Notes: a model not told the origin generated them from the letters alone. A DNA stretch of 4,893 nt from a virus (IMGVR_UViG_2548876958_000007), one strand, 5' to 3'. Positions 213 to 853 are shown, numbered from the stretch's first letter. Made by a program: numbers and translations.

Positions 213-239
213 CCAAAAATAAAGGCCGACTATGCGGCC
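213..239 (-). terminator. Candidate intrinsic terminator overlapping the stop codon of the 207-aa gene
   Basis: Minus-strand RNA GAGGCCG-CAUAGU-CGGCCUU (5-7 bp GC stem; the loop contains the UAG stop) followed by UAUUUUUGG. Confidence 0.5.
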
Positions 240-853
240 TCGGAAGGAAGTCCAATCATCTTATTCAAATCTTCTACCCGTAAAGCAGGAAGTGCTGTAC
301 TTGCTTTATCTGCTTCTTTTGGTAGCAATTCTTTGCTTTCAGGCCAAACTTCAATAAGTCGCTTAACTGTTGTGACTGAGTTCAAAGCAGCCCATACATT
401 TGATTCGATATCCTTTTTCTTGGCTTCAAGTTTTTGTTGCAATGCGCAGATTTCATCAAACCTTTTTGTTATTTCGTGTTCTGCGTCAAACATGCATTTA
501 TCTTTGATCGGAGTAGGGAGCAATATATCTTTGCCGTTGCCGTCTTTCCCATATGAATGCCATCCAACCCTTCTGCCAGATACAGTCAGATAAATTGAAG
601 TAGAACTAACATCGTATGAGTAAAATGAACATCCCATCTTTCCAAGTTCTTCACTTATAGCTACCAACTTGGATGATAACTGATCCACTTCCTCAGTTTT
701 CTTTTTACCGCCAAACGCAATAACTCTGGCGTCAAGTGCAAGCTGGTTCTTTAACTTTGTTACTTCTTCAAGTTCAGTGAACACCCCGGACTTAATTAAA
801 GCGTTACGAGCGATTTCCTCTTTCATTCTCGTAGTTAAGCGGATTGATGACAT
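230..853 (-). CDS. Hypothetical protein, 207 aa, first gene downstream of N in the leftward early operon; function unknown
   Basis: ORF-track frame 230..913 trimmed to the ATG at 853..851, which has the SD GAGAGGA about 7 nt upstream. The track's longer version starts at a TTG and overlaps the N stop. Visibly AT-rich. No family recognised by eye. Confidence 0.7.
   Translation of the reverse strand: MSSIRLTTRMKEEIARNALIKSGVFTELEEVTKLKNQLALDARVIAFGGKKKTEEVDQLSSKLVAISEELGKMGCSFYSYDVSSTSIYLTVSGRRVGWHSYGKDGNGKDILLPTPIKDKCMFDAEHEITKRFDEICALQQKLEAKKKDIESNVWAALNSVTTVKRLIEVWPESKELLPKEADKASTALPALRVEDLNKMIGLPSEAA

Follow-up and report, generated by a model that had tools for sequence, protein, structure and literature searches.

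The window, that is, the whole stretch of DNA analysed, is 4893 bases long and corresponds to a lambdoid immunity region in which cro and cII are transcribed rightward. The features on which this work is centred lie on the opposite strand and, in the order in which that strand is read, are the following.

4105-3398, minus strand: cI, at the head of the minus-strand order.
2996-3337, minus strand: DUF3024 gene (113 aa), just downstream of cI in the rexAB-type slot.
1797-2732, minus strand: P63C-domain gene (311 aa; PF10546, phrog_2384), between the DUF3024 gene and pL.
1787-1770, minus strand: terminator of the P63C gene.
1548-1700, minus strand: pL/oL region, which should drive N and the Nmad5 gene.
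915-1298, minus strand: antiterminator N, an HK97-type allele (PF25694 N_peptide, phrog_271), on the same transcript as the Nmad5 gene and directly upstream of it.
191-914, minus strand: exchangeable module formed by the Nmad5 gene and its own terminator, between the conserved N and the terminator/cIII backbone.
859-866, minus strand: Shine-Dalgarno sequence, read off the DNA sequence as 866-859.
230-853, minus strand: Nmad5-family coding sequence of 207 aa, an open reading frame with ATG at 853-851 and TAG at 232-230.
222-241, minus strand: first terminator-like hairpin (7-bp stem, U-rich tail, -11 kcal/mol), with the Nmad5 TAG in its loop.
78-95, minus strand: second terminator-like hairpin (-10.7 kcal/mol, z = -2.65), in the backbone common with HK97.
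38-57, minus strand: third terminator-like hairpin (-9.9 kcal/mol, z = -2.9), just upstream of cIII.
1-8, minus strand: start of cIII (MQY..., ATG at 8-6), the next gene downstream.

The original prediction had placed a gene at 230-853 without giving a strand. The coordinates proved to be exact and the gene lies on the minus strand, where it does follow N directly in the pL operon (N at 1298-915, then 853-230), within the interval that holds sieB, ral, and ea10 in lambda. The strong Shine-Dalgarno sequence that had been claimed is present as GAGAGGAA, with its GAGG core 7 nt before the ATG. In the mechanical list of open reading frames the 207-aa frame extends upstream as far as a TTG at 913; the N-termini of the homologues, which all read MSS/MT-RLT, fix the start codon at the ATG at 853. 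The AT-rich codon usage was also borne out, with a GC content of 40.2% and a GC3 of 35.1% in the gene against 48.7% and 41.4% in N (window mean GC 43.2%), but this richness is not unique, as the P63C gene has a GC3 of 29%. The pN/pS ratio calculated from 50 distinct close alleles was 0.43 over the whole gene, a purifying selection that identifies it as a real protein-coding gene. By regions, the ratio fell to 0.16 in the C-terminal 47 residues and reached its maximum, 0.64, in the beta-rich middle; neither diversifying selection nor any sign of an arms race was found in these values. The protein has a pI of 7.64, with 32 Lys and Arg against 31 Asp and Glu evenly spread along the chain, and no hydrophobic segment was detected in its 207 residues.

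Only one sigma-70-like match was found upstream of N, at 1576-1548, and the segment 1552-1700 of the window is 100% identical to the segment of phi24B annotated as OL1/OL2. No promoter-like site was detected between pL and the Nmad5 gene, and the 61-nt spacer between N and Nmad5 gave no terminator match and no stable structure (z = +0.5). The terminator scan of positions 1-1800 returned 5 matches against 1.5 expected from shuffled sequences. The hairpin at 222-241 is the first intrinsic terminator-like hairpin after pL, and it falls inside the segment 191-914 that is absent from HK97; each of the three hairpins (241-222, 95-78, and 57-38) has a predicted energy of -10 to -11 kcal/mol and is followed by a U run. 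The original prediction thus described the end of the gene correctly: the TAG lies within a terminator hairpin, two further terminators follow, and the three hairpins before cIII separate the gene from the delayed-early genes. The MQY... gene was recognised as cIII by synteny with HK542, PhiR12, and the C325 prophage. Considering that the interval between N and Nmad5 carries no terminator, the Nmad5 gene should be transcribed together with N before antitermination takes place, and its product would then be an immediate-early one.

Regarding the other arm of the minus strand, the DUF3024 protein matched PDC-S43, a candidate defence family of PADLOC (E 7e-42). The DUF3024 gene of Stx2 phage 86 and of prophage C325 is followed by a small open reading frame and then by the Ser/Thr kinase gene stk, in place of which the window has the P63C gene. 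The very low GC3 of the latter suggests that it is another swapped-in cargo gene, belonging to the cI operon expressed in the lysogen.

The translated protein matched the Pfam family PF18757 with 240.2 bits against a cut-off of 27 (E 3.1e-71), and the match ran from end to end, with protein residues 4-203 on positions 1-206 of the 206 in the profile. PF18757 is Nmad5, "nucleotide modification associated domain 5". The protein also matched phrog_1965, which has no known function, and RefSeq names the identical proteins "Nmad5 family putative nucleotide modification protein". The description of the protein as unrecognised therefore did not hold, since it is a full-length, named member of an already catalogued sequence family, and there is nothing new in noticing the gene itself. 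The same profile was matched by all of the 68 aligned relatives, and the window protein shows the signature motifs, namely the N-terminal RLT..I....NA..K.G, a GG turn, W-P-E...L-L-P, and the C-terminal L-P-A...D-L-N..I-G-L-P. Besides Nmad5, nothing was returned for the window protein by Pfam at E up to 1; the NCBIfam scan gave no match and none of the families of PADLOC-DB 2.0 matched at E up to 1. Nothing consistent appeared among the secondary Pfam matches across the 68 members; those to P4Ha_N (5 members) and SKA2 (3 members) were set aside as noise from coiled coils. A match to a known recombination or replication protein had been named beforehand as speaking against the original prediction; none was found. 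It was also possible to see polymerase labels in the family: 13 of the 68 members weakly match phrog_15487, labelled "DNA polymerase", and the 267-aa "DNA polymerase A" of Pseudomonas phage PMBT3 (BFVD A0A2I6PHY8) has the Nmad5 fold. These labels were probably carried over from a neighbouring gene.

The Nmad5 gene is present in 211 of 5426 complete E. coli genomes, and its carriers include the Stx1a-converting phages, PhiR12, HK542, mEp235, and Kapi1; a literature search on PhiR12 returned nothing. A profile search of 1.84 billion representatives gave, at an E of 0.001 or less, 2316 clusters that consist almost entirely of standalone proteins of about 200 aa, and no domain fusion was seen among the best 150 of these representative clusters. 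Only 6 of 72,556 plasmid records carry Nmad5, all of them phage-like and non-mobilizable, and this near-absence from plasmids rules out a leading-region anti-defence gene.

The segment 191-914 follows different N alleles in HK542, mEp235, and Kapi1, with 96-98% nucleotide identity, and the matches to these three phages stop at position 917, exactly at the N stop codon. HK97, whose N is 98.4% identical in nucleotides to that of the window, has the segments 915-1541 and 28-190 (98-99% identity; 98.8% for 28-190) and not 191-914, in place of which it carries gp45, an uncharacterised protein of 156 aa (1972-2442 in the coordinates of the retrieved locus). The segment 28-190 of this shared backbone carries the second and third terminators, which in HK97 lie downstream of gp45. 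Considering that 191-914 is exchanged for gp45 while both flanks are kept, the cassette consists of the gene plus its own terminator. A gp45-type gene is also found behind the same HK97-type N allele in Stx2 phage 86 (1972-2442 of the retrieved locus), and in the Salmonella phage SPN9CC the cargo between N and cIII is sieB, on the opposite strand (1925-2476 of the retrieved locus), behind a related N allele (86% identical). Between N and cIII there is a hotspot of cargo swaps, and the Nmad5 cassette is mobile.

Two further rearrangements were observed at this locus. Prophage C325 has, at window position 67/68 between the second and third hairpins, a 400-bp segment with a DUF2528 (Ea10-like) gene (6068-6467 of the retrieved locus) which is missing from the window, and the matches to the Stx1a phages are likewise about 400 bp longer at this point. 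It is the absence of this segment between Nmad5 and cIII that leaves the three terminators stacked. The O157 Stx2a phages carry an IS3-family element, with ORFs of 108 and 296 aa, at the 5' end of Nmad5; it has removed the first 33 codons of the gene, leaving residues 34-207, and parts N from the remaining pL operon (in phage Stx2_716 this arrangement is seen at 238-1451 and 1567-2025 of the retrieved locus). The gene is therefore dispensable in these phages.

A model of the protein was built with AlphaFold2 using the alignment of the 68 diverse relatives (pLDDT 91.5, pTM 0.82). It predicts a bundle of helices into which a small beta element is inserted. Helices occupy residues 8-22, 24-47, and 50-72 and are followed by the beta-hairpin region (about 76-125); a long helix (127-158) and short ones (163-176) come next, and a linker predicted with low confidence (185-190) leads to the final helix (193-200). 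The fold search, carried out with an earlier and less good model than this one, gave no match to solved enzyme folds; in BFVD only other Nmad5 proteins were returned, and the sequence search against the PDB with the Nmad5 protein gave only noise. G48, P178, and N197 alone are identical in all 68 members, and I14, A18, R43, G49, G93, T162, L166, W170, P171, E172, L176, L196, G201, and P203 are nearly so. Most of the latter positions hold a hydrophobic residue, Gly, or Pro; among polar residues conservation is limited to R43, T162, E172, and N197, and no catalytic constellation and no cofactor- or nucleotide-binding motif is conserved among the members. The strongest conservation runs through the C-terminal T-x-K-R-L-I-x-x-W-P-E...L-L-P, the linker, and L-P-A-L-x-V-x-D-L-N-x-x-I-G-L-P, and the C-terminal half is the part kept out to the Dhillonvirus and Yuavirus homologues. 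As judged from the alignment, such a pattern fits a scaffold or docking protein and not an enzyme.

The company of the gene across the family was then considered in 160 retrieved viral loci, which sort into 18 clusters when their Nmad5 proteins are grouped at 80% identity. Of the 17 viral clusters from outside E. coli (30-55% identity), about 10 have Nmad5 immediately downstream of a cI-type S24 repressor or of an N-like peptide; this placement is a reading of the layout of the open reading frames, in which the N-like peptides are arginine-rich and Nmad5 shares the strand of its upstream neighbour. With such an upstream neighbour on its own strand, Nmad5 heads the early-left operon in these clusters. 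The Pfam scan of 135 neighbours found Peptidase_S24 in 7 and N_peptide in 3, DUF2800/Enc34 ssDNA-binding/DNA pol A in 3, and RecT, YqaJ, and AAA_24 once each. As for modification genes, which were counted among Nmad5-positive phages, in Yuavirus Nmad5 lies between a 5-hmdU DNA kinase gene and a thymidylate-synthase-like gene, in PTXU04 it adjoins a DNA methyltransferase, in SPN3UB a DpdA-like gene is found two genes upstream, and in several temperate clusters the same strand carries, 2.5-4.7 kb downstream, Dam-like, C5-like, or DpdA-like genes. Nmad5 was named for this modification-gene neighbourhood (Iyer et al. 2013, as cited in PMC11846954), which is real but partial. The gene copies of Dhillonvirus, ZRG1, and VchM-138 are solitary, on the opposite strand or inserted, among structural genes. 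No DNA- or nucleotide-modification gene was found by Pfam in the 4.9-kb window, and no DNA methylase, kinase, or transglycosylase is annotated in the complete genome of HK542. Near its right end (36330-38577) HK542 carries two glycosyltransferase genes and an HNH gene; these are the only conceivable modification genes there, and their target could be DNA or the cell surface.

In the literature that names the family, the only experiments on Nmad5 are those of Yamashita et al. 2025 (PMC11846954), in Dhillonvirus. Phages escaping the Tmn defence system carried nmad5 substitutions, K296E in PhiSMS22 or K216E in PhiSMA8; reverting the substitution restored sensitivity to Tmn and introducing it alone gave resistance, so that the change is necessary and sufficient for escape (PMC11846954). 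Deletion of nmad5 gave no escape, and the gene could not be cloned, with apparent toxicity (PMC11846954). The authors called nmad5 a DNA modification enzyme by citation only, and they read the result as DNA modification (PMC11846954). In PhiSMS22, CDS6 (CDS0006; 5005-6009) is annotated 80 codons too long, overlapping the scaffolding gene, and the family N-terminus MRLT begins at residue 81 of the annotated protein; K296 is therefore K216 of the 254-aa protein, as in SECphi18 gp24. The escape lysine, in N-T-D-K-K-L-I-K-A-W-P-E, aligns with R165 of the window protein, in T-T-V-K-R-L-I-E-V-W-P-E. For the Yuavirus M6, gp51-gp54 were used to rebuild the thymidine hypermodification in vitro, each step being assigned, and the lysates employed did not include the Nmad5 product (PMC8989533). 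Several reported systems were considered as further cases of Nmad5 and rejected: the "NMAD" of a validated DefensePredictor system is Nmad2; Ksap1, the Avs2 trigger of SECphi18, is a different protein of 74 aa; the RAZR trigger of the same phage is its portal; and its escapers from Retron-Eco8 and Borvo map to the SSB and the DNA polymerase.

Taking all this into account, we tentatively favour, at somewhat short of even chances, that Nmad5 acts here as a non-enzymatic, immediate-early counter-defence or host-interaction protein. It would be a dispensable accessory protein that binds its target instead of catalysing a reaction, and that acts as soon as lytic development begins. The N-terminal helices, which are conserved, would together with the C-terminal module dock onto a conserved partner, which may be a protein of the host or a DNA-associated factor, and the more variable middle (helix 3 and the beta insert) would tune the specificity. 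The effect would be to neutralise or evade a host system that acts on incoming or newly replicated phage DNA, and the DNA-modification neighbours would then reflect a clustering of counter-defence genes and not a shared chemistry. The accessory nature follows from the cassette swaps, the truncation by the IS element, the lone insertions, and the presence in 211 of 5426 genomes; the non-enzymatic character is supported by the fold, the conservation pattern, the lack of domain fusions, and the rebuilding of the M6 pathway without Nmad5; and the company of the family consists of Dam-like methyltransferases, C5-like methyltransferases, DpdA-like transglycosylases, and the thymidine hypermodification cassette, four unrelated chemistries that all serve counter-restriction. 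The counter-defence reading would account for the early position, the accessory behaviour, the toxicity of the homologue, the gain-of-function escape from Tmn, and the clustering of chemistries. No similarity to any known anti-defence protein was found; the anti-defence idea would rest on the position, the company of the family, and one genetic result in Dhillonvirus, and this last was obtained with a homologue whose alignment to the window protein covers only residues 103-203 (33% identity).

The main rival, unlikely in our judgement, is that Nmad5 is a non-catalytic, Ral-like helper which binds DNA or a modifying enzyme and promotes early modification of the phage DNA, the enzyme being encoded by the phage or by the host, for example a methyltransferase. 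It would explain why the family is named for modification neighbourhoods, why Nmad5 is the first gene of the hypermodification cassette in Yuavirus/M6, and why methyltransferase or DpdA-like genes adjoin it in PTXU04, lie two genes off in SPN3UB, and follow at 2.5-4.7 kb (Dam-like, C5-like, or DpdA-like) in several temperate clusters; the slot, moreover, is that of lambda ral. However, neither the window nor the annotation of HK542 (methylase, kinase, transglycosylase) offers such an enzyme, the copies of Dhillonvirus, ZRG1, and VchM-138 are alone, and the M6 pathway was reconstituted without Nmad5. One helper for four unrelated chemistries is hard to picture, and the neutral pI comes with no hint of DNA binding. 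If the modification neighbours were to mean that Nmad5 is an enzyme which modifies nucleotides or DNA, the view suggested by the RefSeq name and taken in the Tmn paper (by citation only, PMC11846954), the family name and its neighbourhoods would be directly explained, but we regard this as highly improbable, given that no known enzyme fold was matched, that no cofactor- or nucleotide-binding motif is present, that R43, T162, E172, and N197 are the only conserved polar residues, and that other proteins cover all the chemical steps in M6 (PMC8989533).

A quite improbable role, though still to be weighed, is that of a replication or recombination accessory, for instance in loading or protecting intermediates. 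It draws on the neighbouring DUF2800, Enc34-type ssDNA-binding protein, and DNA pol A modules, on the RecT, YqaJ, AAA_24 (Sak4-like), and primase-helicase genes, on the weak "DNA polymerase" PHROG matches of 13 of 68 members, and on the erf/abc2 or exo/bet/gam genes of the operon. Yet the same cassette occurs with Erf/Abc2, Red/Gam, or RecT modules and has therefore no fixed recombination partner; three terminators stand between Nmad5 and the recombination genes, the gene is dispensable in Dhillonvirus and disrupted in the Stx2a phages, and the polymerase of lambdoid phages is supplied by the host. As to a SieB-like exclusion or defence protein, expressed from the prophage and shielding the lysogen from other phages, the slot is the one that sieB occupies behind a related N allele in SPN9CC, and a PADLOC candidate (PDC-S43) is among the neighbours in the window. 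Nevertheless, we hold it to be very unlikely: with no promoter-like site between pL and Nmad5, the gene should be silenced by cI; the protein has no PADLOC match and no hydrophobic segment; and the family is common in virulent phages (Dhillonvirus, Yuavirus, PTXU04), in which a lysogen-protecting role would make no sense.

Returning to the counter-defence reading, it may be extended, although in this wider form we consider it rather unlikely, to the whole of what would then be a misnamed family: a widespread group (more than 2300 clusters at 50% identity) of non-enzymatic, first-wave proteins whose WPE/DLN..IGLP module docks onto a conserved proteobacterial factor and blunts a DNA-directed defence, possibly a modification-dependent or a membrane-NTPase (Tmn-like) system. 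If true, this would explain the position at the head of the operon, the clustering with four chemistries, and the escape from Tmn at the equivalent of R165. For the lambdoid members, the evidence gathered here gives no support to the name "nucleotide modification" of this large phage family, because no known enzyme fold is matched, no catalytic residues are conserved, and the M6 pathway does not need Nmad5. An unknown accessory gene after N is no surprise to the specialist; it is the mismatch between name and evidence, together with the first-wave position and the Tmn link at the R165 equivalent, that makes it a well-posed experimental target. The position as first or second gene of the early-left operon and the link to Tmn make it a cheap and well-defined candidate for counter-defence screens, and PhiR12, HK542, and mEp235 are tractable lambdoid phages with the same cassette. 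Considering its presence in Stx1a phages and its disruption by the IS element in Stx2a phages, a role in the efficiency of induction, if there is one, would have some applied interest.

By comparison with known systems, Ral and SieB (lambda/P22) and gp45 of HK97 occupy the same slot downstream of N and have no relation of sequence or family to the soluble, 207-aa Nmad5 protein. Ral is a protein of about 66 aa. No match to its family was found in Pfam at E up to 1, so that the genomic slot alone is shared; SieB gave no family match in Pfam or PHROGs, the sieB of SPN9CC being a different gene on the opposite strand, and no fold link of Nmad5 to Ral, SieB, or the PADLOC families was found. The likeness to T7 Ocr (gene 0.3) would be one of timing only, that is, a dispensable product of the first transcript that acts by binding and not by catalysis; Ocr is an acidic DNA mimic of unrelated fold, and a mimic of the Ocr or ArdA type is ruled out here by the pI of 7.6 and the even spread of charge, and no fold match was found. 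The Nmad5 proteins of Yuavirus (M6, SN1, PAC9) align with the window protein over the C-terminal 87 residues at 30-43%, and they differ in length (186 aa) and in standing beside the 5-hmdU DNA kinase and thymidylate-synthase-like genes, which the window does not have. With PF18757/phrog_1965 as a whole the agreement is complete, with the same end-to-end HMM match, all the signature motifs, the standalone size of about 200 aa, and identical proteins in RefSeq and in the Stx1a, PhiR12, HK542, mEp235, and Kapi1 phages; nothing structural differs, and it is only the modification neighbourhood of the family name that is absent from the window. The Nmad5 of Dhillonvirus (PhiSMS22 CDS6, SECphi18 gp24) differs in its 254 aa, its larger middle insert, its virulent phage, and its setting as a lone opposite-strand gene between head genes, where the window gene is proximal to pL. 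The two proteins share the N-terminal MRLT...N motif and align at 33% identity only over residues 103-203 of the window protein, and the escape residue of Dhillonvirus corresponds to R165, inside the shared T-x-K-[KR]-L-I-x-x-W-P-E.
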